Shown in pieces: positions 2,149 to 62,140 of a stretch of 64,000 nucleotides of DNA. The DNA is from a virus. Its lineage: Duplodnaviria; Heunggongvirae; Uroviricota; Caudoviricetes. The notes under the pieces were generated by a model. That model was not told where the DNA came from and searched no databases. It was given only the letters and a program-made list of their open reading frames with translations. The position numbers and the translations under genes are program-made. Numbering within the stretch: the first letter of the stretch is position 1; each line of letters opens with the position of its first letter. The stretch is taken from IMG/VR virus record IMGVR_UViG_3300043451_000039, positions 1 to 64,000 of that record; one strand, given 5' to 3'.

Positions 2149-2400
2149 TTATACCTTTAGAAAGTCTAACAATTGTTCTTCATTCATCATACCAACTTTG
2201 CGTTTAATCTCTGCGCCATTTTCATCAATTAGAATCATAGTTGGAACAGAACGAACGCCATATTCAATCGAAGTCATCATCTCATTATCAATATCAAGTT
2301 CTTCAATTGGAACATTAATTTTATCTTTTGCTCCCTTGATAATTGTAGTCAATGCTTTGCATGGTCCACACCACTCTGCGTAAAATTTAAGTACTTTCAT
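2149..2400 (-). CDS. Thioredoxin
   Basis: 83 aa with WCGPCK active-site motif (AEWCGPCKAL). Confidence 0.85.
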   Translation of the reverse strand: MKVLKFYAEWCGPCKALTTIIKGAKDKINVPIEELDIDNEMMTSIEYGVRSVPTMILIDENGAEIKRKVGMMNEEQLLDFLKV

Positions 2401-2958: not shown

Positions 2959-5437
2959 AGAAATCCTCTAATGAACTTTGTTCTGATGTATTCCAACCAA
3001 GTGGCTCAATAACAATTTGCAAGGCATCTAAGAATACCTTCTCGAATTGTTTATCATAATCTATAAACTTATGCAAGTCAAATTCTTTTGGAAGTTCTGT
3101 TGTGAACGCAATCACATCCTCTTGGAAAGGATTAGGTTTACGAACATAGACAAACTTAATCTTATCACCATCACGGATAGGCTGATACTTCTTATCAAGA
3201 CCCATACGCTTTGTGTAATGATTAAACAATAACGCACCACGAACATGAATCGGAGTACCCTTTGCATAGATTGGTGAACCAGCATACTGCTTCATACCAT
3301 TTACACCACGTGGGAATGCGATATCTTGAACTGGAAGTTTGTCAAACTCTTTACGGAAATCCATAACATAATTATGTAGGACTTTCTGATCACCCTTAAG
3401 AATAACTTCAATAGAGTCACGTAACTTATCACGGATGACTGCTGGCGTAGATGACTTGACCATCTCAAGACCCATAACCTTAATCTTGGGTTTTGCGTAT
3501 TGAACACCTTCAGAGTTATGCACATTCAGAACATAACGCTTCTTGGCAGTCCAGATACCTTTATCAGCCAGAACCTCTCGCTTCATCTGCATCTTCTGAC
3601 TATATGCGTTCATGTAGTCAGCGAGTTCTTGATAACCTGAGTCAATGAAAGGTTGGAAGACATCTTCACAAACCTTATCCATAAACTTAATCTTCTGCTC
3701 GTCAGTTTTACCTTCGCAGGTTTTCTCAACGAGAGTCTCAAGTGTAAGATAGATTGAGTCAGTATCAATCGCAACTACATAATCTTTACCCTCAGTCTTA
3801 AGAGTTTTGTTCATGAATGCGTTTAACTTGTTAGCCATCCAACGAATAGACAGTTGACCAGAAGTAGTAATACCCTCAGCCATACGGATATCGAAGTAAC
3901 GGAAGTACTGGTTACCCATCGCACCATAAGCAGAGTTCAACGCAATCTTCATAGCCATCTGTAGGTTATTCAAACGAGAAATATCTTTCAATAGATGTTT
4001 CTTGGTTTTATCTTTTTCATATTCCTGTTGAACACCAAGCATCTGTTTCTTAAACTTAGAACGATTCTTGTACATCTCTTCCATCAACTCGGGCATAAAC
4101 CCTTTGAACTCTTTTGTGTAAGTCCAGCCATTGGCAGTCAGAGCAAGATCTCGTTGCTTGACATATGAAGTATCAATCTCTTGATTCAACAACTTGTCAA
4201 CAGTAACACTAATCTTTTCAGAAGTCAAAGTCTCAGGCGAGATATTATACTGCATGATCAAGTGAGGATACAATGAGTTCAAGTCAAAGGAAGCCATCCA
4301 TTTGTGCATACCAATCAGAGGGTCTTTAACATACGCACCTTCGAACTGAGCATCTTTACCTGAGTGGCTCTTTGCTGGAATAACAATACCCTTCTTACGC
4401 AGATGGTTATAGATGATTGTGTCCCACATACGAACCTGCGAATAAACATCTTCGAAATTAATCTTAGCATTATAAGCCATGGTCAAATGCAGTTCAATCA
4501 AACGCATTTTGTCTTCAAGTTTGTCAACCAACTCTACGTCATGAATGTTATACTCAACGAATTGTTGCCAGTGGTTGGTATAGAAATCTTTGAATGACTC
4601 ACCTGGATTCTCTTTCTTCTTATCGCCAAGTTCTTGTTCAGCGATATAATCCAAACGATAACTTTCCTGTTTAGAATATGTATATTTCTTATACAGTTCA
4701 AGATAATCTAGCTGAGCAATACCAACGATGTCGTAGTGAATCTCTTCATTACCTTTGATAAAGGTTTTACGCTCATTGACATAACCCCATGGGCTCATCT
4801 TATTAGATGTTCCATCGCCCATCTCACGCTCGATGCGTCGGATGAGATATGGCATATCGAAGAAGTCTGTATTCCAACCAGTGACTACGTCAGGATAACT
4901 CTTAGTCCAAAATTCTAGGAATTGAGATAGAAGTTCTTGTTCGTTTTTACAACCAACATAGATTACATCTTCACGACCATGAACGAATGACTTACTACCA
5001 AAGGTAATGATTCGTTTTGTGTGAAGATCTTTAACTGTGATGAGAAGAACCTCTTCATTGGCAGTTTTAATATCAGGGAAACCATTCTCAGTTGAAGTCT
5101 CAATGTCAACAGTGAATACTTTAATCTGATCCATATCCCAATTGATATCATGGGAATAGTTATCGCTGATGTACTGATAGGCGTAATTGGAATTCCCATA
5201 GACTGAGAAGCCAGTTACACCATCATATCGTTTGATGAAGTCACGAGTCTCCCTGATAGATCCAGGTTGGACTTCATCAACGAATGTTCCCTCCAGTGTC
5301 TTCCACTTGGAGGGTTTCTGAGAAGTTACATAGAGAGTGGGACTAAAATCTAGTTTGCGTTGATAGCGTTTACCATTCTCAACACCTCTGATGAATATCT
5401 TATCACCAATAGGATGTACTGAGGTATAAAATTCCAT
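2951..5437 (-). CDS. 43: DNA polymerase gp43 (family B)
   Basis: 828 aa with YGDTDS-type motif (VAIDTDSIYL) and an exonuclease domain. Position downstream of regA/62/44/45 as in T4. Confidence 0.9.
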   Translation of the reverse strand: MEFYTSVHPIGDKIFIRGVENGKRYQRKLDFSPTLYVTSQKPSKWKTLEGTFVDEVQPGSIRETRDFIKRYDGVTGFSVYGNSNYAYQYISDNYSHDINWDMDQIKVFTVDIETSTENGFPDIKTANEEVLLITVKDLHTKRIITFGSKSFVHGREDVIYVGCKNEQELLSQFLEFWTKSYPDVVTGWNTDFFDMPYLIRRIEREMGDGTSNKMSPWGYVNERKTFIKGNEEIHYDIVGIAQLDYLELYKKYTYSKQESYRLDYIAEQELGDKKKENPGESFKDFYTNHWQQFVEYNIHDVELVDKLEDKMRLIELHLTMAYNAKINFEDVYSQVRMWDTIIYNHLRKKGIVIPAKSHSGKDAQFEGAYVKDPLIGMHKWMASFDLNSLYPHLIMQYNISPETLTSEKISVTVDKLLNQEIDTSYVKQRDLALTANGWTYTKEFKGFMPELMEEMYKNRSKFKKQMLGVQQEYEKDKTKKHLLKDISRLNNLQMAMKIALNSAYGAMGNQYFRYFDIRMAEGITTSGQLSIRWMANKLNAFMNKTLKTEGKDYVVAIDTDSIYLTLETLVEKTCEGKTDEQKIKFMDKVCEDVFQPFIDSGYQELADYMNAYSQKMQMKREVLADKGIWTAKKRYVLNVHNSEGVQYAKPKIKVMGLEMVKSSTPAVIRDKLRDSIEVILKGDQKVLHNYVMDFRKEFDKLPVQDIAFPRGVNGMKQYAGSPIYAKGTPIHVRGALLFNHYTKRMGLDKKYQPIRDGDKIKFVYVRKPNPFQEDVIAFTTELPKEFDLHKFIDYDKQFEKVFLDALQIVIEPLGWNTSEQSSLEDFFG

Positions 5438-8786: not shown

Positions 8787-8968
8787 TTGTGTTTCAATTC
8801 TTTAAAAGTTCTGTAACGCATGTCCCAACGAATCGGTTGCTTGAATCGCTTAACCTCTTTGGTGGTTGTGTTATAGAAGGCATAGATTTTACTCTTACTG
8901 TCATTGGTATAATAGATATGGTTGGCTACCTTACCATCCCAAACAGTTGTCTCTTGGAAGACCCGCAT
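8783..8968 (-). CDS. Hypothetical small protein (61 aa)
   Basis: ORF in track, start/stop-coupled to neighbours. Confidence 0.3.
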   Translation of the reverse strand: MRVFQETTVWDGKVANHIYYTNDSKSKIYAFYNTTTKEVKRFKQPIRWDMRYRTFKELKHK

Positions 8969-9177
8969 TAGACGAATGACTTTCTAGGGAATCCAACAGC
9001 GAAACCAGAAGTGCCAGTGGAAGCGACACGAGTAGTCTTAGAACGCATCAACATCTTTGGTGCTTTACGAGCCTTAACAACTTCGATTGAGCCACCTTGT
9101 TTCAAAAACTTCTTCAATGCTTTTTCAGTTTCAGCACGCAACTCAGCTTTAGATTTATACATGATATATCCTTTCAA
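8968..9177 (-). CDS. Hypothetical small basic protein (69 aa)
   Basis: ORF in track. Confidence 0.35.
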   Translation of the reverse strand: MKGYIMYKSKAELRAETEKALKKFLKQGGSIEVVKARKAPKMLMRSKTTRVASTGTSGFAVGFPRKSFV

Positions 9178-9441
9178 TTAAATACGAGACAAGTTCATAA
9201 CACGACCTGGATAGTCATTGTAAGAGACTTTCACAGGCACATAAACAATTTTACCGATACGACCTTTGTCGCTTGGATCTTTCTCATCAATCCATGAATC
9301 TTTAGTCACGGTAATCTTGTATGCTTCATATCCAGGTTCAGTTGTAATGCGTTCAACGACACCTTCAACAAAACAATCCTCACGACCGATCATAGGTTTG
9401 AAGTCATAAGAACGAATAACATCACGAATCTTTACAATCAT
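9178..9441 (-). CDS. Hypothetical protein (87 aa), first gene downstream of early promoter P1
   Basis: ORF in track. Promoter TTTACT-17-TATAAT lies 30-58 nt upstream. Confidence 0.45.
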   Translation of the reverse strand: MIVKIRDVIRSYDFKPMIGREDCFVEGVVERITTEPGYEAYKITVTKDSWIDEKDPSDKGRIGKIVYVPVKVSYNDYPGRVMNLSRI

Positions 9442-9470
9442 TTTGGATCCTTTTCAACTTTCATACATAT

Positions 9471-9499
9471 ATTATACATCAAGATGCAATTAAAGTAAA
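9471..9499 (-). promoter_or_regulatory. Sigma70-type early promoter (minus strand): -35 TTTACT, 17-bp spacer, -10 TATAAT
   Basis: Reverse complement of 9471-9499 reads TTTACTttaattgcatcttgatgTATAAT. It belongs to the conserved promoter family described in the findings. Confidence 0.5.
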
Positions 9500-9672
9500 G
9501 CGAAATGTTGAAAACCCTACAGATTGTAGGGTTATTCGTAAGTTCTTGATTTTTAAACCTTTTTTATTAGGTTTTAAACCCCGAGAGAGGGCTGTAGGGA
9601 CGTTTGGAGGGCGAGGGTGGGTAAACCCTCAGGGATAGCCGTAAAACGTCTCTACGATCGTTTTGGCAGTTC

Positions 9673-9975
9673 TTAGGACGCCATTTTTAGCCCACTCAGG
9701 GCACTAGCGGAAACGACCTCGATACCCGAACCGAAGATACGGTTGTACTCATTAGCCATGTTCGTATTAGGGGTTGCCTCGGATGCGATAGCCGATGCGT
9801 ATAGAACAATGGTACTTTCGGCATATGGCATATACGGAGCAAGTCCAACACCAACACCTTTCTCAGTTTGTTGAATAACAATTGCGGCTGGATCTTCCAA
9901 TGTATATCCAAGGGCAGTCACTGCTGTTTTAGCAATAAGTTCTTCACCATTAATTAGTTTAAACACTTTAATCAT
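9673..9975 (-). CDS. Hypothetical protein (100 aa)
   Basis: ORF in track. The ORF at 9696-9911 nested on the same strand in another frame is rejected. Confidence 0.45.
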   Translation of the reverse strand: MIKVFKLINGEELIAKTAVTALGYTLEDPAAIVIQQTEKGVGVGLAPYMPYAESTIVLYASAIASEATPNTNMANEYNRIFGSGIEVVSASALSGLKMAS

Positions 9976-10217
9976 TTTAATCCTCTATCATATTTTCAAT
10001 AAAATTTGCTGCCTCATCTTGACTTTGGAAAACCTGCATAACAAATTTATCCATATCATATACGTGGTTCATCAAAACTAAAATCTGTTTGTTTTTATAA
10101 ACAGAAACCTTCAGTGTCCAATTCCCCCTACGAACTAGGAAGAATGAAATTAGATTTGGTGATAGTTTTGCTTTCATACAAGTATTTAGGGGAACACGAA
10201 GTTCCCCCATACTTGTA

Positions 10218-10346
10218 TTACATCTCTACATAATCTTCTTTACCAACACCACACTCTGGGCATTCAAAGGTATCTGGAAGTTCTTCCCATTTACCTTCAG
10301 TGACTTCATCGTGGACGTGGCCACAAACAACGCATACGTAATCCAT
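10218..10346 (-). CDS. Rubredoxin (42 aa; two CxxC pairs)
   Basis: Manual translation: MDYVCVVCGHVHDEVTEGKWEELPDTFECPECGVGKEDYVEM. Start overlaps the upstream stop as TAATG. Missing from the ORF track because it is under 60 aa. Confidence 0.7.
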   Translation of the reverse strand: MDYVCVVCGHVHDEVTEGKWEELPDTFECPECGVGKEDYVEM

Positions 10347-10795
10347 TATAAGTTCTCCAATGTTTGTTGATATGCTTGAGCATGACGCTTCTCTACTTTA
10401 GCGAGAGCAGCAAAACGCTTTTCTGCTTTAGCCAAAACTTGAGCAAATTGTTCAGCGTGTTCTTTAGATTCAGCAATCTGATCAGCAAATTCTGAACGAG
10501 CCAAAGGATTCTGTTCCAACTCTGCATCAGTTTTAAACTTTGGATACATTGTAGTAAACTCATAAGTCTCACCTTCAATTGCTTTCTGTAGGCATTCCTT
10601 AGTGGATGGCTTACCGATTAGCAACTCAAGATGACCCCACGCATGTTTGATCTCTTGATCAGCAGTATGTTCGAAATGTTTTGCAACATCTTCGAAACCT
10701 TCTTCACGAGCGATCATAGCGAAATATCGATATTTGATATGAGCCATTGATTCGCCAGCCAATGCACTCTCAAGATTTTGTAATGTTACAGACAT
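10346..10795 (-). CDS. Rubrerythrin-family (ferritin-like di-iron) protein
   Basis: 149 aa with two E...ExxH-type di-iron half-sites (ESMAHIKY...EIKHAWGH; a second pair lies C-terminal). Immediately followed by a separate rubredoxin gene. Confidence 0.7.
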   Translation of the reverse strand: MSVTLQNLESALAGESMAHIKYRYFAMIAREEGFEDVAKHFEHTADQEIKHAWGHLELLIGKPSTKECLQKAIEGETYEFTTMYPKFKTDAELEQNPLARSEFADQIAESKEHAEQFAQVLAKAEKRFAALAKVEKRHAQAYQQTLENL

Positions 10796-10884
10796 AATTT
10801 CTCACTTTGTTTTATTATGTGGGTTTGGTGGAACCTTTCCGTTCACCCAATCCCAATCGTCATCTGTCATTGGAATCCATTGGT

Positions 10885-11049
10885 TCATACCATGCTCCCT
10901 CTTCGAAGGTACGCATAATACTCACGCTCCAATTGCTCCACATGAAGCGGAGTTTGTGGGTTGTGGGCTAAAATGAATTCCTCTAGTGTTGTAGTTCTAT
11001 CACGCAATACATTACCAATTAAGGATTTAAGTGCGGATAGAAATTTCAT
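10885..11049 (-). CDS. Small ORF (54 aa) coupled by ATGA to the hsp20 stop; a 28-aa ORF follows it before the rubrerythrin gene
   Basis: Manual translation gives MKFLSALKSLIGNVLRDRTTTLEEFILAHNPQTPLHVEQLEREYYAYLRRGSMV, with start-stop overlap with hsp20. Weak support. Confidence 0.25.
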   Translation of the reverse strand: MKFLSALKSLIGNVLRDRTTTLEEFILAHNPQTPLHVEQLEREYYAYLRRGSMV

Positions 11050-11531
11050 AGGTCTTCTTCAGTTAGATACTGTTTACCTTTACCAGTCTTAACTGGAACT
11101 TTCTTTGCTTTCTTTTCTTCTGGCACCAATTGATCAAGAGCGATCTTTAGAACACCATTGAAAAGTTCAGCATCCTTAACTTCATACTGATCACCGATAG
11201 CCCACGCACGAGTGAACGCACGATTAGAGATACCTTTGAATAAGAAGTTTTCTTCTGGTTCTTTGGATTCAGCGTTACCCTTAACGATCAACTTACCACC
11301 ATCGATAGTGATGTCGATTTCGTTTTGAGCGAAGCCAGCTACAGCGATTTCGATCGTGTAAGTGTTTCCGTTCTTACGAACATTAAATGGAGGGTAGTTA
11401 GGGATATCTTTAGTCAAGTCGTCATGCAATTGCTGCATGCGTTTGAATTGGTCATCAAAGCCTACGAATACTTTATCGAAGTCCTTGAAAACATCTTGGC
11501 TAAAAAATGCTGGAATGAATGATTTTGTCAT
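11046..11531 (-). CDS. Small heat-shock protein (Hsp20/alpha-crystallin family)
   Basis: 161 aa with an alpha-crystallin-domain-like core (YTIEIAVAGFAQNEIDITIDGGKLIVKG...) and a basic C-terminal tail. Confidence 0.75.
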   Translation of the reverse strand: MTKSFIPAFFSQDVFKDFDKVFVGFDDQFKRMQQLHDDLTKDIPNYPPFNVRKNGNTYTIEIAVAGFAQNEIDITIDGGKLIVKGNAESKEPEENFLFKGISNRAFTRAWAIGDQYEVKDAELFNGVLKIALDQLVPEEKKAKKVPVKTGKGKQYLTEEDL

Positions 11532-11674
11532 AGTGATTTCTCCTATTAAGCGAGTGTAATAAAATTTGATACCCCGAAGGCGTATCAGTTGTTGCTGGTT
11601 ACTGACTCCAGCGACAGCTTAACGTACTGTCAGCTTTAAACGATTCGTAACTTAGCGGTCCTAAGGTGAATTCT

Positions 11675-16919: not shown

Positions 16920-17296
16920 TTCTTCTTACCTTTCCAAGCAACGAATTCTTTTACAAGTTCTTCATGCTTAGCAGCAGAGCAATACAAAGTCCATTCACGA
17001 ACAATGTCTTTATAGGTTACACGCTGTTCACCATTCTCACCTTCAGTGTGAACTGCTGGCTCAGATAACATATAACCAAGAATTGTTTTTGGAATACCAT
17101 TATCCCAAACACGCTCAATTGAAAACACTTTCATTGCGTCCCAGTCAACAGCAAATGAAGCAGTTTCCATTTCACCAACAAGACGCTTCTGATATGCGTC
17201 ATTGGCAAACTTCAGTCGTTCATTTTCTTTCTTCAAATCTTCCAATTCCACTTTTAGATTTGAATGAGTAATAGGATTAATACCGAACAAAAACAT
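16916..17296 (-). CDS. Hypothetical protein (126 aa)
   Basis: ORF in track; first gene of the SPFH operon block. Confidence 0.45.
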   Translation of the reverse strand: MFLFGINPITHSNLKVELEDLKKENERLKFANDAYQKRLVGEMETASFAVDWDAMKVFSIERVWDNGIPKTILGYMLSEPAVHTEGENGEQRVTYKDIVREWTLYCSAAKHEELVKEFVAWKGKKK

Positions 17297-17631
17297 TATA
17301 CATCCTTAGAATATTTTACATCATGTTCATACAAGAACATCAAACAACACATGGCGTGAGCCAAGTGATTCTTACCAGTCTCAGGGTCATTCTGCTCACC
17401 CTCTTTCCATGCCCAAAGATGACGCTGCATCGCATCAAAATATCTACGCTTCGAGTCAGGAACAAATTTCCAATTATCTGGTTCATATTTTTCAGCACCG
17501 AAAGTCAGAATCTCTGCTGTCGCTCTCAATGCTAGTGGCGGTAGCAAACCATACTGTGGCTTACCACCATCAAACTTTCGCCCACCTGTTGTGGCGATTT
17601 GTGACGCTTTAACTTCTTCTGGAGTTGCCAT
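17296..17631 (-). CDS. Putative dATP/dGTP pyrophosphohydrolase-like (phage NTP-PPase) domain protein
   Basis: 111 aa. The pattern KFDGGKPQYGLLPP...LTFGAEKYEPDNW...HLAHAMCCLMFL resembles the phage dATP/dGTP diphosphohydrolase N-terminal domain family. Motif recognition only. Confidence 0.35.
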   Translation of the reverse strand: MATPEEVKASQIATTGGRKFDGGKPQYGLLPPLALRATAEILTFGAEKYEPDNWKFVPDSKRRYFDAMQRHLWAWKEGEQNDPETGKNHLAHAMCCLMFLYEHDVKYSKDV

Positions 17632-18656: not shown

Positions 18657-19856
18657 TTAAAATGGAACTTCGTCAGAAGGTGTTGCAGCGACTTGCTCGG
18701 GAGCAGGTGCTACCTCTGGCGCAGGGTTAGCAACCATCTCATACAATTTCAAGAACGCATCTTTAGTTGCAGAGTCAAAACGATTGCAGCAAAGTTCCAC
18801 TGCTTTCTCACGCTTCTTGAAGATAGCGTAAGCACGAACAATGTGGATCATACGACGAGTCGTAATAGTTTCATCCACACCACCATCGGCGAAAGTGCGA
18901 CGAATTGAATCAGCCCACTTGACCAATGTTTCAGCGAACTCTTTATCGGGGCAACCGAAAGAGTCCATAAGATTTTCAATAATCTTACCTTCAACCTTTG
19001 CAGAAGGATAGTCCTGTTCAAAGGTTACGGCAAATCGTTCCAAGAATGCTTCGTTCAATACGTTGGTACCGATATAGCGACCATCGTCACTACCCTTACC
19101 CTTGGTGTTAGCAGTGGCAAAGATATTGAAACCTTCAGCGGGAACAATCATCTCATTCTTGAGTTTGAAGTAATAAGGTTTACCCTCGAGGATTGGTTGC
19201 AAGCAGAGCAAAGTGTTTGCTGAGCCAGCGTCAATCTCGTCAAGCAACAAAGTGCAACCAGTACGCATAGCGATAAGAACTGGACCCTCAACGATTTGGA
19301 CGTTGCCGTCTTCGAGGGTTTTGGTACCGATGAGTTGTTCTTCATCAGTCATCATGTTCAAGTTAACACGAATCAATGGACGTTTGTGTTTGGCACAAAT
19401 CTGTTCGACCATAGTTGATTTACCGTTACCAGTTGGACCACTGATATAGGCTGGGTAGAAAATCTTTGACTTGATAATATTTTCAAGATCAGAGTAGTTG
19501 CCGAAAGGCACGAAATTTGGATCCTTCTTTGGGATCAGCGACTGAACATCCGTATAATCCACTTGGAATGATTCCTCAACTTTAGGTTTCAATGCGGCAT
19601 TACCAACAGTGGCATTACCTCGACCATCGATCGCATACAAGCCACGACCGACTTTGGTTGTCATCAACCACTTGGGTGATGTTTTGGTGCCAAGAGCACG
19701 CATAGTTTCTAGCAACTGAGCATTTTGAACGACTCCCTCGGTTTTAACATCGGGGAACAACTCAAAGAGTTTACCTTCAAATTCAGCTTGAAACGCACTG
19801 TCAATTTTAGCCATCATTTTCTCCATAACAAAACTACTTTCAATCAATTTATACAA
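18657..19856 (-). CDS. cobS: CobS-like AAA+ ATPase (MoxR/cobaltochelatase small-subunit family); the real start is probably Met14/15 at about 19817
   Basis: Walker A GPTGNGKST, Walker B LLLDEID, sensor/arginine-finger region, size about 390 aa as in phage CobS homologues. A GGAG RBS sits 5 nt before Met14, and the predicted TSS of the promoter at 19859-19887 lies downstream of the first ATG. Confidence 0.7.
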   Translation of the reverse strand: MYKLIESSFVMEKMMAKIDSAFQAEFEGKLFELFPDVKTEGVVQNAQLLETMRALGTKTSPKWLMTTKVGRGLYAIDGRGNATVGNAALKPKVEESFQVDYTDVQSLIPKKDPNFVPFGNYSDLENIIKSKIFYPAYISGPTGNGKSTMVEQICAKHKRPLIRVNLNMMTDEEQLIGTKTLEDGNVQIVEGPVLIAMRTGCTLLLDEIDAGSANTLLCLQPILEGKPYYFKLKNEMIVPAEGFNIFATANTKGKGSDDGRYIGTNVLNEAFLERFAVTFEQDYPSAKVEGKIIENLMDSFGCPDKEFAETLVKWADSIRRTFADGGVDETITTRRMIHIVRAYAIFKKREKAVELCCNRFDSATKDAFLKLYEMVANPAPEVAPAPEQVAATPSDEVPF

Positions 19857-19947: not shown

Positions 19948-22089
19948 TTACGCAACATACCCCACGAACCTATTGAGTAGGACTCGGGAAGTCTTCTTGG
20001 TATTGAGGAATTTAGTGAAATTCTTAGCAATAACCTTTGCATTCGCATCAGCGTTGACGCTCAATTCACCCTCTTGAATCTTGGTAGAATCTTGAGGGAT
20101 CAGGAACAAGTCATCGCGACCAGTGTTCTTGATGGAAGCAAAACCATTATCACGGAATTCTTTCCTCCAAGAATCAATTTGGTTTGAGTGATTACCAGCA
20201 AACTTAGGTAAGTTGGCATTGATAGCACTTTCCAAATCGCGACGAGCATTGCGGCAGATATAGAAACCAACAACCATGATATCATAACGATCTTTGATCA
20301 TACTCAAGATGGTGTTAGTTTGGATACCTGAATAGCGAGACAACTCATAAGTCTTTTGAGTCACTTCATCACGGATAAAGTGTTTCTGTTTGAACTTCTT
20401 ATATTGACGATTCTCATCGTACTCATAAGATTGCTCAGAAAGATCTCCCATGTTAGACTGCAGTGAACCACCCTCGCCATCGGTCAAAGTGATCAAAGTA
20501 GTTTTCTCGATATTGTTGTTCTTGATGTAGTCACCAAGATTCAAGTATACCCAAGCCAATGCTTCGTTCAGCGGAGTACCACCCATGCTATAACCATCGT
20601 TCCATTGGAAGCGACGATTGATAACACGACGAGCCATAGAATGGAACTCGGTAGTGGTCATCTTGCTAGAGAACAATTCCAACAAGTGGAAATTATTAAC
20701 ATTACTCAGGATACGCTTACCTTCGTGTTTGACTGCTTTTTGACGATAGAACTCACGCTGTTTATCCCAGTCATTCATACGATCGCGACGATCAGTATAC
20801 TGAGAAGTAAAAGCAAGAACACGGAAAGGAATCTGAATGCGTTGGCAGAACATAGTAAGGTTGATAACCTGCTTCAATGTATCTTCCATAACACCATCCA
20901 TAGAACCCGACCAATCAAGCAAGAATACCATGCCATGGTTTTTACCCTGAGGCAAAACAGTGACACGCTTGAACAAGTCATCCTGAAGTTTGTAAGACCA
21001 GATACGCTTCATATCAAGAGAACCAGACTTCGAGATTTGAGCACGCTTATACATCTGAGCCGACTTCTTCATCTCAAACTCTTTGACCAAGTAATTCACG
21101 GCACGCATAGTTTCATTCTTGAACTTCTCGTAGTCGTTGTTACATTGAACAATTGTCAGTTTGTCTTCTTCAGTCATGGCGTCAGAAACCCAGTAAGGTT
21201 TTGTCTCAGCCAAAACTCGCTTGAAGTCAATCACAGGTGACTCATAATATTCTTTGTCAAACTCATAGTAGAAATACTTGGTGTTCTCATCAGCAAGATC
21301 TTCAAGTTGTTTGGCAAAGTTACGCTCAGTCTTAGACTCAAGTTCTTCTGGACTCGCAGCAGATGGGTCTTGCTTAGGTTGAGATTTGGACTTCATAGGT
21401 TTGAGATCCTGATCATCCATGTCATCCATCTGCTCGAAACCATCCATATCTAGATCGTCATCGTCAAACTCGCCATCTGCGTCATCATCAGATTCATCTT
21501 CAGGTTCAGCAGACAATTGTTGTTGCTTCTTCTTTTCCAGCTGTTCTTTTGAATAGGCATAGATCTCATCAGCCAACTCAATAACTTCTTCGATCGTCTC
21601 AGTACGCTCAGCACGATTCACGAATGGTTTCTCGTCAGGTGTAAAGGTAACACCGCATGTGAAGCCAGCTTTGAAGTAAAGGTTGATTTTGTCGATCAAC
21701 AGCAAGTCGTCAAAATTCTGAACTTGTTTAACACCAAAGAAGTCACGATCGTTCAGTTGTTTGTAACCTTCGTTCATGCGCTTACGCAGACCTGGATACT
21801 TACGCTTCATCATCTTCTCAATGCGAACATCTTCGAGGACGTTGAGGTAGCCCATCATCTTAGGGTTATCTTGGATCGGTTTCAGATAATCATCGCCAGT
21901 GTAAAGGGCATGACCAACTTCGTGACCGACAAGCATATCCTCGATCTCAGGTGTCATATCTTTCCACAGAGGCAAAGTCAACACACGATTTTTAATATCA
22001 AACGATGCAGTGCGTGTTGGAGCACGAACGACTGAAAGGTTTTCAGTAGCCAGCAGTCGCGCCGACAAGTCACTTGTTTTATTGTCCAT
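19948..22089 (-). CDS. cobT: CobT-like protein with C-terminal von Willebrand factor A (vWA) domain and a central poly-acidic tract
   Basis: 713 aa with a vWA MIDAS-like motif (VFLLDWSGSMDG) and the acidic stretch EDESDDDADGEFDDDDLDMDGFEQMDDMDDQD, typical of aerobic cobaltochelatase CobT-like partners of CobS. Confidence 0.6.
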   Translation of the reverse strand: MDNKTSDLSARLLATENLSVVRAPTRTASFDIKNRVLTLPLWKDMTPEIEDMLVGHEVGHALYTGDDYLKPIQDNPKMMGYLNVLEDVRIEKMMKRKYPGLRKRMNEGYKQLNDRDFFGVKQVQNFDDLLLIDKINLYFKAGFTCGVTFTPDEKPFVNRAERTETIEEVIELADEIYAYSKEQLEKKKQQQLSAEPEDESDDDADGEFDDDDLDMDGFEQMDDMDDQDLKPMKSKSQPKQDPSAASPEELESKTERNFAKQLEDLADENTKYFYYEFDKEYYESPVIDFKRVLAETKPYWVSDAMTEEDKLTIVQCNNDYEKFKNETMRAVNYLVKEFEMKKSAQMYKRAQISKSGSLDMKRIWSYKLQDDLFKRVTVLPQGKNHGMVFLLDWSGSMDGVMEDTLKQVINLTMFCQRIQIPFRVLAFTSQYTDRRDRMNDWDKQREFYRQKAVKHEGKRILSNVNNFHLLELFSSKMTTTEFHSMARRVINRRFQWNDGYSMGGTPLNEALAWVYLNLGDYIKNNNIEKTTLITLTDGEGGSLQSNMGDLSEQSYEYDENRQYKKFKQKHFIRDEVTQKTYELSRYSGIQTNTILSMIKDRYDIMVVGFYICRNARRDLESAINANLPKFAGNHSNQIDSWRKEFRDNGFASIKNTGRDDLFLIPQDSTKIQEGELSVNADANAKVIAKNFTKFLNTKKTSRVLLNRFVGYVA

Positions 22090-23576: not shown

Positions 23577-24971
23577 TTACTTGTTGCTGTTCTTGCGAAC
23601 TTCTTCGAAAGTAATTTCGTTGATAAGTTTGCCATCACGGAAAACTTCTTGCAGAACCTCAGTCCAACCAAGACCTTTGTCAGTCCAGCCAGTGGGCTGA
23701 GTAACAGCAGAGCGATGCTCACCACCAGATTCCCAAAGGGTTACACGACCAGCCTTTGACTTCTTGCCAGAATCAGTAACAGGATCTTTCTGAACATCAA
23801 CCCAAACTCCGTTGATCTTAGCAGAAGAACACTTCATTGCGAACTTCTGAGTATCACGATCAACAATTTGAAGAAGAGCACCGCCCATACCGAAAGCAAT
23901 GTTATCAGCTGACCACCCATAGGCTTGGAAGCCACCGAGAATCATGCGGATAGTGTGTTCATTAACACCATCACCTTGGATCAAACGAACATTGTTCAGT
24001 ACTTTGAATCCTTTGGCGTTGGTTGTATAACCGAATTTCTCTCCAAGGATTTGGACGAGTTTGCGGCATACGGTGTCAGGATCACCAGAGTCGGGACGGA
24101 TAACCACAGTCGCACCAGAGACGATAACTTGCTCCTTGAGTTCTTCACCCCAGAGTTTGCTTGCTGCATTGAAGATGTCATACGAATCACTCACAACTGC
24201 CAAGATAGAACCTTCACGACCGAATTGCTTCAGCATATTCTCATATGCCTTCACTTCATTGTCTCGCCCCCAGCTTGTGATTGTGCTGTGCTCTGCGGCT
24301 GGGATTGAGAAGCCTGCGATACCAGCGTTATAATACTCACGAGCATAGAGCAAGCCAGTAATAGTATCAGTGCCCATGAAGTTAACCAAGTGGGACGCAC
24401 CCCCAACTCCAGCAGACTCAAGGCTAGATACACCACGAGCACCAAAATCGTGTAACTTAAAATCGATAGTAGAAGGGTCACCAGTTTTCTCCAAGTAGTC
24501 AAGAATAATTTTCTTGATAGATTTAGATTGTGTTGCTACAGTTGTAGGATACCATACAGCACGAAGCAAAGCAGTTTCCAAATAAGTTGTCAACCAGAAA
24601 CATTCTGGATCAGTGTTTTCAATTGTCGCCAGAACATTCTTAACAGGCACCACTGTGCCTTCAGGAACAGCACGAATAACAACTGGAAGGAATCCGTTAT
24701 GTTTGGTAAGGATATACTCCCAACCAGCACGGTTGAATGGTTCTCCGTGTGCAGTGAGAATTTCATCTGCGATATCGATATCGGCTTGGGTAATTGGTTC
24801 AAGTAAATACTCCTTGATGAACGCTTGAAGACCGAAGAATACTGTTTCATCATAGCGTCCGCCACGAGATTCAATATATGAATATACACCAGTTGTACCA
24901 GCTGGATATTGTTTGAACATGCTAACTTTGTAGCTGTCTGTGTTCAACAGAATGTTTTTTGCGAGTTTCAT
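23577..24971 (-). CDS. nadV: Nicotinamide phosphoribosyltransferase (NAMPT/NadV)
   Basis: 464 aa with NAMPT-family length and motifs (NTDSYK...GTDT...DSYD). Adjacent to a NadM-Nudix gene as in KVP40. Confidence 0.85.
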   Translation of the reverse strand: MKLAKNILLNTDSYKVSMFKQYPAGTTGVYSYIESRGGRYDETVFFGLQAFIKEYLLEPITQADIDIADEILTAHGEPFNRAGWEYILTKHNGFLPVVIRAVPEGTVVPVKNVLATIENTDPECFWLTTYLETALLRAVWYPTTVATQSKSIKKIILDYLEKTGDPSTIDFKLHDFGARGVSSLESAGVGGASHLVNFMGTDTITGLLYAREYYNAGIAGFSIPAAEHSTITSWGRDNEVKAYENMLKQFGREGSILAVVSDSYDIFNAASKLWGEELKEQVIVSGATVVIRPDSGDPDTVCRKLVQILGEKFGYTTNAKGFKVLNNVRLIQGDGVNEHTIRMILGGFQAYGWSADNIAFGMGGALLQIVDRDTQKFAMKCSSAKINGVWVDVQKDPVTDSGKKSKAGRVTLWESGGEHRSAVTQPTGWTDKGLGWTEVLQEVFRDGKLINEITFEEVRKNSNK

Positions 24972-24988
24972 GATTATCTCCTAATCGA

Positions 24989-25963
24989 TTAAAGTTTTGC
25001 GAAAGCAGGCATTGGCATAACACCTGTTACTTTTGAAATGATGTCCTTATGGTCATCATACATTTCAATGCTGTTAAGTGCTTCAGTAAGTGGCACCCAC
25101 TTGCACATAGCAGCATCGTCAGCACCATTAGCACGTGGCAATGAGTAGTCAGGGTTTGGGCTGATACGCATATACACTGCCATGGTGTTTCTTGGAATAC
25201 CAAATGAACGATTTGGATTATCGAACAATTCAGTCTTCACAATCGAGCCACGTAGAACCTTCTCAGGAACACGGACATTTGTTTCCTCGATTAACTCTCG
25301 GATTGCGCAGTCGAGAAATGTTTCTCGCTGATTTTTAAAACCTCCAGGAACTGCCCACGCATCTTTTCCTGGGCTGAACTTTCTTTGAATGAGAAGGACA
25401 TGCCCCTGACATTCAAGGACTGCATCTGCGCAGTTGAAGTTGAGGGTTTCTGGGAAGGGATAGTCTTTAAATAATTTCTTTTCATTTTGATAAAATTGAT
25501 AATCACCGAGCACAGTCTCAGGCATATCAGGATCTTTTAAATCAAACATGCGTTGACGAATTTGTGTGGCATTCATATTATATTGCGCTTCAATACTTCT
25601 AAACTCTAGTTCTGGGAACCACTTGAGGTAATCATTACCTTCTTTCATGTGTCCAAATAGAATCGGTGAACCCATATTGAAGTGTTCAATTGTGGCGCGA
25701 ACATCAGACATCCATTGAGTGTCTGAATATTTGTAATCGTTTAGTGGGATAATTTCGTAGTTGGTTATCCGAGCATTATGCAGCTTCAGGTGAAGCATTT
25801 GCTTACGTTCATCAAACGTCCAAGGGTTTTTAATACTACGACAGACGTTGGAAGAACCAACTAGGATGTACAGTTTTTGTACTTGGGATGCAGCCAAACC
25901 CAGTGCGTGGATATGACCTTGATGTGCGGGCTGGAATCGCCCAATAAAAATACCAGTTCTCAT
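24989..25963 (-). CDS. natV: Bifunctional NMN adenylyltransferase / Nudix ADP-ribose pyrophosphatase (NadM-Nudix, NatV)
   Basis: N-terminal nucleotidyltransferase motif GRFQPAHQGH (HxGH-type) and a C-terminal Nudix box (GGFKNQRETFLDCAIRELIEETNV). Confidence 0.85.
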   Translation of the reverse strand: MRTGIFIGRFQPAHQGHIHALGLAASQVQKLYILVGSSNVCRSIKNPWTFDERKQMLHLKLHNARITNYEIIPLNDYKYSDTQWMSDVRATIEHFNMGSPILFGHMKEGNDYLKWFPELEFRSIEAQYNMNATQIRQRMFDLKDPDMPETVLGDYQFYQNEKKLFKDYPFPETLNFNCADAVLECQGHVLLIQRKFSPGKDAWAVPGGFKNQRETFLDCAIRELIEETNVRVPEKVLRGSIVKTELFDNPNRSFGIPRNTMAVYMRISPNPDYSLPRANGADDAAMCKWVPLTEALNSIEMYDDHKDIISKVTGVMPMPAFAKL

Positions 25964-33956: not shown

Positions 33957-34475
33957 TTATGTAAACTTGAAATGTCCAAATCTAAAGGTTGCAGAACCTA
34001 CTACGTAGTTAACACCTTCATTAGTGGATGCAAATGTAATTGAATCTAGTGTTGTTGGGAACGCATCATAGAAAGTGATAGTTCTTACAACATTATTGTT
34101 TGAGTCAAGAATCTCTAGGGTCGCATCAGAATAGTTTTTCGCAAGTTCATCGTATTGTGTAGTGTCGCCAGCTAAGAAGGTAACATACTGATCATATGAC
34201 TCAGGGAAACCAAGAGCAACAATCCAGTTATACAATACATTATAGTTTAACATTTCTTCATCAACTAAGAATTGAATCTGAAGAGAGTCATATGTCAACG
34301 CATCACCTGGAACTGGGTTAGTAGCGAAAGGTGTTGAGAATGTTGGCTCACCAAGAGTAATCCCTGGGAGGTTTGCTTGTTGACAATAAAATGCGATGTC
34401 TGCTGCTTTCGAAATGGTAAAGTTAAAACCATTCGGAGAGAGTGGACTCAAATTCGAAGAAGATGGAATTGGCAT
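33957..34475 (-). CDS. gp19-like tail-tube-fold paralogue (172 aa; gp19/gp48/gp54 family)
   Basis: The pattern NGFNFTISKAADIAFYCQQANLPGITLGEP...GDALTYDSLQIQFLVDE parallels gp19 NLFQVEI...FQCKATALPAG...GDRTF. The authentic gp19 is at 40639-41226. Confidence 0.5.
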   Translation of the reverse strand: MPIPSSSNLSPLSPNGFNFTISKAADIAFYCQQANLPGITLGEPTFSTPFATNPVPGDALTYDSLQIQFLVDEEMLNYNVLYNWIVALGFPESYDQYVTFLAGDTTQYDELAKNYSDATLEILDSNNNVVRTITFYDAFPTTLDSITFASTNEGVNYVVGSATFRFGHFKFT

Positions 34476-34624
34476 TATGGGTGTTGTAGTGGTACTAGGT
34501 TGTTAATGTCTTCACCTACTGGTGGAGTCAATGGAACCAAGTTGTTAATGTCTTCACCTACTGGTGGAGTCAATGGAACTAGATCTTCTGGTTTTACTAC
34601 TGGAATATCTGGTGGGTTTGGCAT
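34475..34624 (-). CDS. 49-aa proline-rich tandem-repeat micro-protein (MPNPPDIPVVKPEDLVPLTPPVGEDINNLVPLTPPVGEDINNLVPLQHP)
   Basis: Manual translation. Strong RBS AAAGGAGATTATAATG, and its stop overlaps the downstream ATG as TAATG. Contains two 14-aa repeats encoded by a 42-bp tandem DNA repeat. The plus-strand ORF 34377-34658 in the track is its antisense shadow. Confidence 0.45.
   Translation of the reverse strand: MPNPPDIPVVKPEDLVPLTPPVGEDINNLVPLTPPVGEDINNLVPLQHP
34499..34582. repeat. 42-bp direct tandem repeat, 2 near-identical copies (plus a partial third copy)
   Basis: 34499-34540 and 34541-34582 differ only in the last 3 nt (gttgttaatgtcttcacctactggtggagtcaatggaac...). Confidence 0.8.
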
Positions 34625-34657: not shown

Positions 34658-34681
34658 AAAAAAGGGGAACCGAAGTTCCCC
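34658..34681 (-). terminator. Rho-independent terminator after gene 23 (minus strand)
   Basis: Stem GGGGAAC/GTTCCCC with a cgaa loop, followed on the minus strand by TTTTTT. Confidence 0.55.
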
Positions 34682-34715
34682 TTTGAAATACCTATCTTAC
34701 GTAGGTTTCTAACTA

Positions 34716-35999
34716 TTACATCAAGTTAGCAACTTTAACACGACGGTAGTAGTAGTTTTCGTTAGCAGTCAAGCCACCTGAACCATCCAATGAAACGAAT
34801 GGGTTAGCAACCATGCCATAACGAGTCTTGAAGCCAATCTTTGGTTGGAAGCTGTTTGGATCAACAGCACGAACCATTTGTAGAGGCACGTATGGGCAGT
34901 AGAACAAGCCAGCGTCAAAAGCAGAAGCGCCTTTGTAGCCAACAACGAAGAACTGAGTAGCAGATACGTTAGAAGTATATGGGTCAACATACACTTTGTA
35001 CTTGCCGTTTAGAACACCAGCGAAAGTAGTGCTTGTATCATCAACAGTTAGGTTGTTCTTACCAGACAAGCCAGAAGAATAATCCAACACGCCAGCCATT
35101 GCTAGAGCAGAAGCAACGTCAGCTGAAGTGATGATAAAGTTACCACGACCACGACGAGTTTGTTGACCGATAGCGTTTGCTTCACGTTCGATTTGGAACA
35201 TCAAGCCTTTGAACTTCTCAACAGACCAACGACCATTAGAGTCAGTGTCTAGGTCGAAAGTACCAGCAGTAGTAGTACCAACTTGAGCACCTGCCTTAGC
35301 AGTAGTGTAAACAGTACGAACAACTTCACGGTTGATTTCAGCAAGGATCTCAGTAGAGAGAATGTTGCTCAATTCGCCTTCAGCGTCAAGACCATGAACA
35401 GCCTTCAAGTCTTGAGCCAATTCAACAGAGTATTCTGCCTTCAAAGCACGAGTCTTTGCAGTAACAGAAGTCTTCTCGATGCTGAATGCCATTTGACCGA
35501 AAGAACCATCACCTTGACCACCTTGGCCAAGACGTTCAGCTGCAGAAGTAGCCAAACCAGAACCAGTAGTTTCAGAACCACCGAAGTCAAAAGTACCAGA
35601 GTGAGTACCAGTACCAGCGAAGTCTGTGTCAGCTTCGTTGAACAATGCTTCAGTACCACCTTGAGTAGAGTAGCGTGACTTCATTGCGAAGATCAAGCCA
35701 GTAGGTTGAGTCATTGGTTGAACGCCAGCGATATCGTAAGCGATCAATTGTGGCATAGCACGACGAACCAAGCTGATCAACACTGGATCAAACTTAGCAA
35801 CACCGCCTGTGTCTGGGTATGAACCAACGCTGTTAGTAGGAGCAGCTTCGAACAATGCTTCAGCTTGCTTGCCCATTTCGCGTTCTTGGTTCTCTAGAAG
35901 AACAGCAGTAACTTCCTTACGGTAGTTATCTTGAATTGGAGCAGAACCCTCGTGATTGAGGATTGGTGCCCATTTTTCCATTAATTGTTTGCGATCCAT
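34716..35999 (-). CDS. 23: Major capsid protein gp23
   Basis: VRRAMPQLIAYDIAGVQPMTQPTGLIFAMKSRY aligns with T4 gp23 VRRAIPNLIAFDICGVQPMNSPTGQVFALRAVY. C-terminal GFKTRYGMVANPF matches GFKTRYGIGINPF. Confidence 0.9.
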   Translation of the reverse strand: MDRKQLMEKWAPILNHEGSAPIQDNYRKEVTAVLLENQEREMGKQAEALFEAAPTNSVGSYPDTGGVAKFDPVLISLVRRAMPQLIAYDIAGVQPMTQPTGLIFAMKSRYSTQGGTEALFNEADTDFAGTGTHSGTFDFGGSETTGSGLATSAAERLGQGGQGDGSFGQMAFSIEKTSVTAKTRALKAEYSVELAQDLKAVHGLDAEGELSNILSTEILAEINREVVRTVYTTAKAGAQVGTTTAGTFDLDTDSNGRWSVEKFKGLMFQIEREANAIGQQTRRGRGNFIITSADVASALAMAGVLDYSSGLSGKNNLTVDDTSTTFAGVLNGKYKVYVDPYTSNVSATQFFVVGYKGASAFDAGLFYCPYVPLQMVRAVDPNSFQPKIGFKTRYGMVANPFVSLDGSGGLTANENYYYRRVKVANLM

Positions 36000-60908: not shown

Positions 60909-61856
60909 TTAGTGTAGTTGAATCTTCTCAACTAGACCTGGAGTGAAGTAGTCAGCAAACTTAGCGTAAACTGGAGCAGTAACTTCTTTGAAGCGTGCTT
61001 CTTGTTCAGCAGTCATCTTAACAACTTCAACACCCTCAGCCTCGCATTGAGCCAAGATGTTTGGAATATCAGCAACAGACTCGCGACGCTCTTGACGAGC
61101 AGCGTTGAATGCAGCAGTAGACAAGATTTCTTGAGTCTCAGCATCGAATTGCTTGAAGAAGTCTTGGTTAACGATGATAGATGTCAAGAACAAGCTGTGG
61201 GCTGTATCGTTAACAACTTTGAAACTCTTGTGTTGGTCTAGTGGGAACACACGAACGTAAGTAGATTCACCAGCTTCGATCAAACCTGCATCAGCTGCAG
61301 CATTCATTTCTTCCAAAGCGATGTGTTCTTTTGGTTCTGCGCCGAGCAACTTGAAAGTCTCAACAGCAACTGGAGAACGAGAAGTGCGAACTGTGCGCCC
61401 TTGCCATGCTTCTACAGTGTCAGCCTTAAAGTTAGCTGGAACAACACGGTATCCACCAGAGTAAGTAAAAGACATAGCATGAGTATTAGAATTCTTAGCA
61501 ACACCAGCCAATAACTCAGTACCGATAGAACCTTCTAGAACTGCGTCAGCGTGAGCATGGTCACGGAACAAGAATGGAAGATCTAACGCATGTAGGTCTT
61601 TGTTATAGTCAGCCAACCAAGTAGTATAGATATGGCTCATTTCGATAGCGCCAGTATCAACCAACTTCATTAAAGCATCTTTGGTGATCTTTTGACCGCC
61701 ATTGTATTTGTTGGTATAGTCAGTTAAAGAAAGAACCTCGATGTCAAACGCACCATTAGTTTTCTCATTAACTTCTTTAGCGAATCTCTCCGCTACTTTC
61801 AAAAACAAACCGATAGGTTCGTGGGCAATAACCCATTTTACATGTTTAGTAGTCAT
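60909..61856 (-). CDS. TRAP-transporter solute-binding-protein (DctP family) homologue lacking a signal peptide
   Basis: 315 aa. KWVIAHEP..., FAKEVNEKTNGAFDIEV, LDLPFLFRDHAHADAVLEGSIGTELL and the C-terminal VYAKFADYFTPGLVEKIQ are DctP-family hallmarks. The N-terminus MTTKHVKWVIAHE has no hydrophobic leader. Confidence 0.7.
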   Translation of the reverse strand: MTTKHVKWVIAHEPIGLFLKVAERFAKEVNEKTNGAFDIEVLSLTDYTNKYNGGQKITKDALMKLVDTGAIEMSHIYTTWLADYNKDLHALDLPFLFRDHAHADAVLEGSIGTELLAGVAKNSNTHAMSFTYSGGYRVVPANFKADTVEAWQGRTVRTSRSPVAVETFKLLGAEPKEHIALEEMNAAADAGLIEAGESTYVRVFPLDQHKSFKVVNDTAHSLFLTSIIVNQDFFKQFDAETQEILSTAAFNAARQERRESVADIPNILAQCEAEGVEVVKMTAEQEARFKEVTAPVYAKFADYFTPGLVEKIQLH

Positions 61857-62140
61857 TTCTTAATTTCCTCTGTAGGTATAAAAACCCAGTGTTCTGTTTG
61901 ATTGTCTACATTTATCAATCTTTTCATAACAGGCTCGCTATTATTTATAAGATTTCTAATCACATCCGCACTAGGAAGTTCTTCTTTATTTAGGATCAAA
62001 CTTACTGGGACTACGGTCTCTCTATGACCATAAGTTTGATTATTTGAATCATAGTAGAAGTAATCCTTTATCCTAAAAGTCCCGTCTGGGAATCTAGGAT
62101 ACTCAGATATTTCTACCAGATATTCATTTATAAAACTCAT
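61853..62140 (-). CDS. Hypothetical protein (95 aa) coupled between the rSAM and SBP-like genes
   Basis: ORF in track with 4-nt overlaps at both ends. Confidence 0.45.
   Translation of the reverse strand: MSFINEYLVEISEYPRFPDGTFRIKDYFYYDSNNQTYGHRETVVPVSLILNKEELPSADVIRNLINNSEPVMKRLINVDNQTEHWVFIPTEEIKK

Follow-up and report, generated by a model that had tools for sequence, protein, structure and literature searches.

A rubrerythrin gene coupled to a shortened rubredoxin gene in a T4-like aquatic phage: a putative peroxide reductase dependent on a host enzyme

Can a phage which encodes a rubrerythrin and a rubredoxin, but no reductase to supply them with electrons, reduce hydrogen peroxide in the cell that it infects? 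This question is raised by two adjoining genes, here termed rbr and rd, which occupy positions 10218-10795 of the minus strand of a 64,000-nucleotide stretch of viral DNA (positions 1 to 64,000 of IMG/VR record IMGVR_UViG_3300043451_000039, hereafter referred to as the window). A preliminary description of this locus, made from the nucleotide sequence and its open reading frames (ORFs) alone, had proposed a split, peroxide-detoxifying rubrerythrin system carried by a vibriophage. Based on the present analysis we consider it probable that rbr and rd are a phage copy of the first two genes of the bacterial three-gene NADH peroxidase operon, and that their products act as an H2O2 reductase which depends on a host reductase.

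The rubrerythrin and its candidate di-iron ligands

The larger gene, rbr (10346-10795, minus strand), encodes a 149-amino acid (aa) one-domain rubrerythrin, or 'erythrin', for which Pfam searches, Protein Data Bank (PDB) matches, AlphaFold2 (AF2) modelling and Foldseek comparison all point to a di-iron four-helix bundle. The protein scores 67 bits against the Pfam rubrerythrin profile PF02915 (cut-off 22.8) and 27.2 bits against the ferritin profile PF00210, while its sequence matches in the PDB are the B. pseudomallei rubrerythrin and sulerythrin, with E-values of 2e-21 to 1e-17. The ORF is located exactly where the preliminary description had placed a ferritin-like di-iron protein, and the ExxH pairs reported for that protein are present as E48xxH51 and E135xxH138. 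Against the classical rubrerythrin equivalog NF045767 of NCBIfam the protein reaches 72.8 bits, which is below the cut-off of 200, and it contains neither a Cys motif nor a fused rubredoxin-like domain, ending as it does at residue 149.

Alignment identifies E15, E48, H51, E76 and E79 as candidate di-iron ligands, to be complemented by either E109/H113 or E135/H138. All of these residues are invariant in 120 close homologues, 79 bacterial sequences and 6 cyanobacterial sequences, and they present the ligand pattern of a Glu in helix A, ExxH in helix B and ExxE in helix C, with two candidates in helix D. Whichever helix-D motif is taken, the di-iron ligands are not missing on alignment, and the protein would be expected to bind iron. 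E135xxH138 is a canonical ExxH motif, which both MAFFT and BLASTP align with helix D of short rubrerythrins across a gap of ~25 residues. E109-S-x-E-H113 is positioned at the canonical spacing from helix C (its His corresponds to E76+37), albeit with the Glu one residue early, and the segment Q106..E109-S110..H113-A114..F117 is invariant in the phage, proteobacterial and cyanobacterial groups.

The structure of the protein was predicted by AF2 using a diverse alignment (pLDDT 92.1), an earlier model from a shallow alignment of 79-94% identical sequences (pLDDT 57.6) having been discarded. The model consists of helices 3-31, 35-60 and 65-93 and a continuous 52-residue helix 97-148, in which E109..H113 is predicted to lie inside the bundle while E135xxH138 would protrude. 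Sequence alignments thus favour E135xxH138 as the helix-D ligand pair, whereas the structure model puts E109..H113 in the bundle. In a deletion test the Pfam score was 69.2 bits without the first helix-D motif and 62.6 bits without the second, and a search of PDB sequences with the C-terminal 67 residues alone produced no more than a marginal Dps-like match. The two Glu/His motifs of helix D resemble a tandem duplication of this helix. To judge from the aligned sequences, the double motif is a property of the whole clade and not of the phage.

Foldseek aligned the model with domain-swapped rubrerythrin protomers (P. furiosus and C. difficile rubrerythrin, sulerythrin and B. pseudomallei rubrerythrin) at template modelling (TM) scores of 0.74-0.81 and root-mean-square deviations (rmsd) of 1.0-1.8 Å over 126-137 columns, whereas the non-swapped D. 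vulgaris form fits the model poorly (rmsd ~14 Å). Classical anaerobe rubrerythrins (D. vulgaris 1RYT, P. furiosus 1NNQ and C. difficile 9FJ2) have the di-iron bundle in common with the phage protein, as well as the principle that a rubredoxin-type iron feeds the di-iron peroxidase site. Sulerythrin (1J30), ferriperoxin and the B. pseudomallei rubrerythrin (4DI0) resemble it in having no fused rubredoxin domain, and the domain-swapped conformation of sulerythrin/4DI0-type erythrins matches the predicted phage protomer with TM scores of 0.74-0.78 and an rmsd of 1.3-2.3 Å. These one-domain 'aerobic-type' erythrins differ in that they are ~36-37% identical to the phage protein, lack its 26-residue helix-D extension and have no adjacent rubredoxin gene; for the aerobic type, Cardenas et al. 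2016 (PMC5114695) instead describe a co-occurrence with DUF3501 and an Fe-S oxidoreductase.

The mini-rubredoxin and its coupling to rbr

The smaller gene, rd (10218-10346, minus strand), encodes a 42-aa mini-rubredoxin of the form CxxCG...CPxCG, with the Cys pairs C5xxC8 and C29xxC32 separated by 20 residues. A 42-aa rubredoxin with two CxxC pairs had been proposed in the preliminary description, and this ORF is confirmed, its product scoring 37.2 bits against PF00301 (cut-off 23). The phage rubredoxins comprise 42-48 aa and include a second subtype with 17 residues between the Cys pairs. Rd does not attain the size of canonical rubredoxins (~52-54 aa, with ~27-32 residues between the Cys pairs) and falls below the NCBIfam rubredoxin equivalog (30.9 bits, cut-off 90). 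Its matches in the PDB are rubredoxins, among them the naturally short (45-46 aa) 6RXN and 6NW0. Relative to bacterial rubredoxin, 9-12 loop residues between the Cys knuckles are deleted and CG(F/Y)xY is replaced by CGHxH. The D. desulfuricans protein 6RXN has the same surface loop deleted and likewise keeps four Cys residues and the CPxCG knuckle; the phage rubredoxins are shorter still, their Cys pairs being separated by 20 or 17 residues, and they carry CGHxH instead of CG(Y/F)xY. One related locus (L061) carries an rd gene with the variant motif CPECDCG. The 42-aa ORF is already listed as a rubredoxin by the JGI and Logan gene calls and, with both genes thus named in public gene calls, the cassette is no novelty as far as database annotation is concerned.

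The two genes share base 10346 in a TAATG stop/start overlap, as had been noted in the preliminary description, and a GGAG Shine-Dalgarno sequence for rd (10355-10358, minus strand) is located within the last rbr codons, 8 nt before the ATG. A scan of IMG/VR identified 594 viral contigs which encode a relative of the 149-aa protein, representing at least 120 protein clusters of ≥79% identity. Locus counts given here refer to the best 80 loci of these relatives (78-90% identity), 79 of which have downstream DNA. A rubredoxin ORF is present 3' of rbr in all 79 evaluable viral loci; in 74 of them it abuts or overlaps rbr, and in the remaining five it begins 142 or 412 nt further downstream. Overlaps of 1 nt are seen in 36 loci and overlaps of 4 nt in 34 (counts including the window). 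GGAG or GGAGG is kept 6-9 nt before the rd ATG in nearly all related loci. All four Cys residues of rd are invariant in the 79 loci, and the median pairwise dN/dS is 0.10 for rbr and 0.19 for rd, with synonymous sites being saturated. Because it adjoins rbr in 79/79 loci with invariant Cys residues, the 42-aa ORF is not a product of chance, and the comparative sequence data indicate a genuine gene which is translated by coupling and maintained under purifying selection. The conservation of this ORF, on which the earlier proposal had hinged, is thereby documented.

Outside the viral database, a phage-type rbr and a 42-aa rd (79% identity) are found on a 20-kb contig labelled as an Aquiluna metagenome-assembled genome (MAG; locus L085, CAZKLA010000025.1), which also has a phrog_850-family phage protein and is without a reductase. 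Given the place of this locus in the phage clade, the contig probably stems from a phage and was binned into a bacterial MAG.

Bacterial relatives, electron supply and competing explanations

In a scan of one genome per GTDB species, the closest cellular homologues of rbr (60-69% identity over the full length) were found in freshwater and soil Betaproteobacteria (Burkholderiales, Rhodocyclaceae and Gallionella) and in a few Moraxellaceae, the named genera being Aquabacterium, Polynucleobacter, Undibacterium, Rhodoferax, Limnobacter and Noviherbaspirillum. The betaproteobacterial proteins possess the long fourth helix with both motifs and, as in the phage, the rubredoxin has a gene of its own directly 3' of rbr on the same strand. 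A 54-aa rubredoxin is encoded within ~270 nt downstream in ~68 of 76 evaluable bacterial loci, and 71 of 79 loci have, further along the same strand, a gene homologous to that of NADH:rubredoxin reductase. In Polynucleobacter parvulilacunae (L110) the gene order is a divergent LysR-type regulator, rbr, rd, the reductase and, on the opposite strand, an Fe/Mn superoxide dismutase, the reductase being composed of Pyr_redox_2 and Rbx_binding domains. Compared to the bacterial operon, with its standard 54-aa rubredoxin, 20-270 nt spacer and subsequent reductase gene, the phage version has dropped the reductase, shortened the rubredoxin to 42-48 aa and removed the intergenic spacer, rd now mostly overlapping rbr by 1 or 4 nt.

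A neighbour-joining tree without support values places 64 distinct phage sequences in one clade, sister to the proteobacterial clade. Since the bacterial relatives already encode their rubredoxin separately, the separate rubredoxin gene is an inherited bacterial arrangement, and the possibility that the split arose in the phage was rejected. The preliminary description was thus correct in that the rubredoxin is a separate gene, yet this split derives from a bacterial rbr-rd-reductase operon and was not made by the phage. The association with anaerobes which it had drawn does not hold, as rbr groups with aerobic freshwater Betaproteobacteria and cyanobacteria (PMC5114695). The 'cyanobacterial-type' group 5 rubrerythrins have been described as comprising two branches, one of proteobacterial one-domain proteins and one of cyanobacterial proteins with a fused, long-spaced rubredoxin domain (PMC5114695), and by this description rbr would belong to the one-domain proteobacterial branch of group 5. 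Identity between rbr and the cyanobacterial fused proteins (237 aa; the P0169 cluster, Floridaenema, Phormidium) amounts to 42-46%, and both have the extra segment Q..ES.EHA..F in helix D and a true rubredoxin as partner, as opposed to the short rubrerythrin-type domain; they differ in that a full-length rubredoxin is fused C-terminally, whereas that of the phage is separate and shortened. We take Anabaena RbrA to be a representative of this fused type.

No NADH:rubredoxin reductase was found in the 64-kb window or in any of 84 phage loci, each of which (the window excepted) spans +/-3 kb around the gene. Furthermore, a profile-guided scan of 2.9 million IMG/VR contigs using two peptide patterns revealed no cognate reductase, the matches consisting of 18 distant flavoproteins (22-30% identity), all of which are on other contigs. 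The phage pair consequently falls short of a three-component NADH peroxidase, as no dedicated reductase is encoded with it, and it probably depends on a host enzyme. The peroxide-detoxifying role assigned in the preliminary description remains the best reading of the locus, but the absence of a reductase had been overlooked and the pair is not self-sufficient.

In the mechanism that we propose, electrons from NADH would pass through a host rubredoxin reductase to the Fe(Cys)4 centre of the phage mini-rubredoxin, and from there to the di-iron site of the phage rubrerythrin dimer, where H2O2 would be reduced to water. Both proteins would be produced from one mRNA by translational coupling, employing the overlapping stop/start codons and the internal GGAG, and their expression would coincide with that of the early/middle replication-gene block and Hsp20. 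The benefit to the phage would be peroxide protection during the latent period, in which the peroxide-inducible operon of the host would no longer be inducible; the host-type operon adjoins a LysR-type regulator in the one bacterial locus that was scanned (L110). Proven peroxidases of the rubrerythrin-like type which have no rubredoxin domain and are fed by a separate reductase, such as ferriperoxin (PMC3317640), lend support to this mechanism.

A number of points weigh against it. The mechanism presupposes that the host has a compatible reductase, and the reach of the reductase searches, i.e. flanks of 3 kb and two peptide patterns, bears on the absence from which the dependence on the host is deduced. 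The loss of the rd loop and the change of the CG(F/Y)xY aromatics to CGHxH could signify a change in partner specificity. The helix-D ligand is ambiguous, the in-bundle motif E109xxxH113 of the model not being an ExxH motif and the canonical E135xxH138 protruding from the predicted bundle. Finally, peroxidase activity is deduced from sequence for the phage proteins and for their betaproteobacterial relatives alike.

The alternative that survives best, and which we nonetheless regard as unlikely, is that rbr is a peroxidase served by a different donor, be it ferredoxin:NADP reductase (FNR) or another flavoprotein acting via the mini-rubredoxin, in which case the host rubredoxin reductase would not be needed. 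Ferriperoxin, a one-domain rubrerythrin-like peroxidase, is driven by FNR and NADPH (PMC3317640), the rd loop deletion and the CGHxH motif are consistent with a change of partner, and no reductase travels with the cassette. Such a scheme must, however, be reconciled with a rubredoxin which is retained, coupled and selected in 79/79 loci, and with the dedicated reductase, equipped with a rubredoxin-binding domain, that is part of the same operon in the bacterial relatives.

A role in iron or oxygen handling, whereby rbr would serve as a ferroxidase or iron buffer, or the pair as an O2-reducing sink which re-oxidises NADH during infection, is next in order and appears improbable. The ferritin-like superfamily fold, as reflected in the PF00210 score, is compatible with this role, as are the weaker bacterioferritin fold matches and the presence in the window of thioredoxin, NAMPT and NMNAT genes. 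Nevertheless, the best structure and sequence matches are all rubrerythrins or sulerythrin and not ferritins, the bacterioferritin matches obtained with Foldseek attain a TM score of ~0.4 at an rmsd of ~14 Å, and the homologous operon of L110 is positioned beside superoxide dismutase and LysR-type regulator genes, albeit in a single locus.

It is very unlikely that the pair interferes with the redox defence of the host, the mini-rubredoxin titrating the host reductase or the pair acting as a decoy: the reductase is absent and the rubredoxin departs from the host type, as such interference would have it, but not one metal ligand of either protein varies and the whole catalytic subunit is strongly conserved, which is not expected of a decoy. 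A recently captured passenger without phage function, for which the clearly bacterial origin of the genes and nothing further can be adduced, is effectively refuted by the conservation data, i.e. the 594 viral contigs with a relative, the single clade of phage sequences, saturated dS with a dN/dS of 0.1-0.2, the conserved coupling signals and the compaction of the gene pair.

Beyond the host-dependent peroxide reductase favoured here, a broader proposition is put forward tentatively and, taken as a whole, it is rather doubtful: the coupled rubrerythrin/mini-rubredoxin module using host rubredoxin reductase may be among the most widespread oxidative-stress auxiliary genes of freshwater T4-like phages, where it would sustain peroxide defence in infected Betaproteobacteria, and the 52-residue clade-specific helix with its two Glu/His motifs may constitute an undescribed architecture, for example a second metal site or a rubredoxin docking arm.

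The flanking hairpin, the genome and biological meaning

Directly 3' of the rd stop codon is an extended 41-nt hairpin (10177-10217, minus strand), recognised by its fold score and kept in relatives, with a folding energy of about -24 to -26 kcal/mol (z = -5.45; 0/200 shuffled sequences fold as well). Its inner stem, GGGGAAC/GUUCCCC, encloses a UUCGU loop, its outer stem is formed by UACAAGUA/UACUUGUA, and the last base of its 3' arm is the A of the start codon that follows. The pattern GGGGAAC(N2-8)GTTCCCC occurs twice in the 64 kb (10189-10207 and 34664-34681) compared to an expectation of 0.00. The only other copy of the stem belongs to the gene 23 terminator (34661-34684, minus strand), which reads AAAGGGGAAC-UUCG-GUUCCCCUUU followed by UUUCAUUU and represents a hairpin with a C(UUCG)G loop and a subsequent T-run, ~35 nt after the stop codon of the major capsid gene. 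The 41-nt hairpin and the stem which it has in common with the gene 23 terminator are therefore as the preliminary description had reported them. Just after this terminator a direct repeat, CTTCACCTACTGGTGGAG, occurs twice, 42 nt apart (34510-34569, plus strand), within a 49-aa ORF (34475-34624, minus strand) in which it encodes a repeated LVPLTPPVGEDI peptide.

A shared terminator in the form of a repeat element was considered and rejected in view of the mere two copies, the lack of a U-tract after rd and the variation of the stem by compensatory changes. The hairpin after rd has AUGAAAGC instead of a U-tract and was not called by the terminator scan; because it lacks a U-tract and abuts the next start codon, it is not a canonical terminator. 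Its structure is kept in 10 related loci with the same downstream gene, in which both partners are altered in two pairs of the inner stem and the outer stems show covariation, and Rfam returned no match within 9400-11100. In six loci (L004, L025, L028, L043, L049 and L052) the region just 3' of the rd stop contains a sequence (e.g. GGACTCATAATCC) which by eye resembles a tRNA; a tRNA scan of the window detected no tRNA genes.

Between the stems of the hairpin, on its 3' side, is a T4-type late-promoter-like motif, CCTAAATA (10183-10190, minus strand), which ends 5 nt before the ATG of the next gene and is invariant in 11/11 aligned loci; several ORFs of the virion-gene region in the window are preceded, at a distance of 20-33 nt, by the same NNTAAATA motif. 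The gene which follows is a 66-aa ORF (MKAKLSPNL..., 9977-10177, minus strand) encoding a conserved protein without a Pfam or NCBIfam match. Its start is the ATG at 10177 and not that at 10210 given in the ORF list, since the relatives are conserved from MKAKLSP onwards and a 1-nt deletion in L084 breaks the frame of the upstream ATG. No Shine-Dalgarno sequence precedes this ATG and the distance between motif and ATG is 5-10 nt, from which a late transcript would be predicted to be almost leaderless (leader of 0-5 nt).

Intercistronic C(UUCG)G hairpins of T4 are very stable, and in the case of T4 e, soc and I-TevI a hairpin hides the start site in early read-through mRNA, while a late promoter fires from inside the hairpin. 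The present structure is similar to the former in its stable G+C stem, UUCG-type loop and position between genes, and to the latter in the late-promoter-like TAAATA between the stems and the start codon at the hairpin edge; it differs from the e/soc/I-TevI design in the lack of a Shine-Dalgarno sequence and in the 5-10 nt between motif and ATG. By analogy, and with low confidence in each case, the hairpin is most likely an mRNA 3'-end or stability element, may occlude the start of the next ORF in read-through transcripts, and may harbour a late promoter. A near-leaderless late transcript or translational gating of the 66-aa ORF could result.

Regarding the source of the DNA, no near-identical match to 9600-11600 was obtained by megablast against 50,697 phage records. 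For the major capsid protein (34716-35999) the best matches, at 64-65% identity, come from Synechococcus and Prochlorococcus myophages, Methylophilales phage Melnitz and Pelagibacter phage HTVC008M, and nucleotide matches of the 20-kb structural region are restricted to cyanophage capsid genes (74-75%). The upstream neighbours of the pair are the T4 sliding clamp, clamp loader and RegA genes, with Hsp20 (11046-11531, minus strand; PF00011, 61.7 bits) directly upstream, while DNA ligase and DNA polymerase genes are located downstream. The capsid relatives and the T4 replication neighbours together point to an uncultured aquatic myovirus of the T4-like kind, the closest relatives of which are cyano-, pelagi- and methylophages. 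The vibriophage identity given in the preliminary description is not upheld, and a KVP40-like vibriophage was rejected because these nucleotide and protein comparisons did not link the window closely to the T4-like phages of Vibrio. The NAMPT and NMNAT-Nudix genes of the window, of a type that KVP40 presumably also carries, may account for that assignment. NAMPT (23577-24971, minus strand) adjoins the NMN adenylyltransferase-Nudix fusion (24989-25963, minus strand), with which it forms an NAD salvage pair.

The order gp62-like, RegA, Hsp20, rbr, rd is common to about half of the related loci, Hsp20 being present in 39/80 as determined by tblastn. In L039 and L013 (rbr 3001-3453) the cassette is located directly 3' of a gp32-like single-stranded DNA (ssDNA)-binding gene and not of Hsp20; as this placement differs from that of the Hsp20 loci, the cassette occupies at least two positions in T4-like genomes. 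The 'putative rubrerythrin' of Pelagibacter phage Mosig (MT647606) is also a rubrerythrin-family gene of a T4-like aquatic phage and also adjoins the gp32 ssDNA-binding gene, but it encodes a canonical 141-aa erythrin (38% identity) which lacks the helix-D extension and has no rubredoxin gene beside it. Between Hsp20 and rbr in the window is a 28-aa ORF, MNQWIPMTDDDWDWVNGKVPPNPHNKTK (10802-10888, minus strand), which is probably a real mini-gene because tblastn matches it in 15 related loci.

A number of other genes of the window were noted. An 83-aa thioredoxin with a WCGPC motif (2149-2400, minus strand) is a second redox protein of the same genome. A 64-aa protein (8968-9162, minus strand), kept in 7 related loci, has a weak match to the SutA RNA-polymerase-binding domain (24.7 bits, below the cut-off of 29.3), and a 111-aa protein (17296-17631, minus strand) corresponds to the N-terminal domain of dATP/dGTP diphosphohydrolase (PF18909, 121 bits). 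A CobS/CbbQ-like AAA protein (18657-19826, minus strand) is followed by a 713-aa protein without a Pfam match (19948-22089, minus strand), which may be its CobT-like partner. At the edge of the virion-gene block is a DctP-family TRAP-transporter solute-binding protein (60909-61856, minus strand; PF03480, 149 bits), an unusual cargo for a phage, and its gene adjoins that of a 463-aa radical SAM protein (62137-63528, minus strand).

Rubrerythrin is listed as a viral auxiliary gene in metagenome surveys (e.g. PMC13644194), and the literature that was searched on rubrerythrin in connection with phages, cyanophages, auxiliary metabolic genes or pelagiphages yielded passing mentions but no description of a cassette of rbr and a mini-rubredoxin gene. 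The enzyme system itself is known, and the novelty is that a large group of T4-like phages has acquired it in a partial and compacted form. If active, the pair would represent a case in which a phage keeps only the needed protein parts of a host antioxidant chain while the host supplies the reductase, which is the logic of cyanophage photosynthesis genes applied to peroxide defence. The 42-aa rubredoxin is a naturally minimised electron carrier. As the host must possess a compatible rubredoxin reductase, the cassette also provides a clue to host range and, being common (594 contigs), it could matter for phage production in peroxide-rich surface waters.

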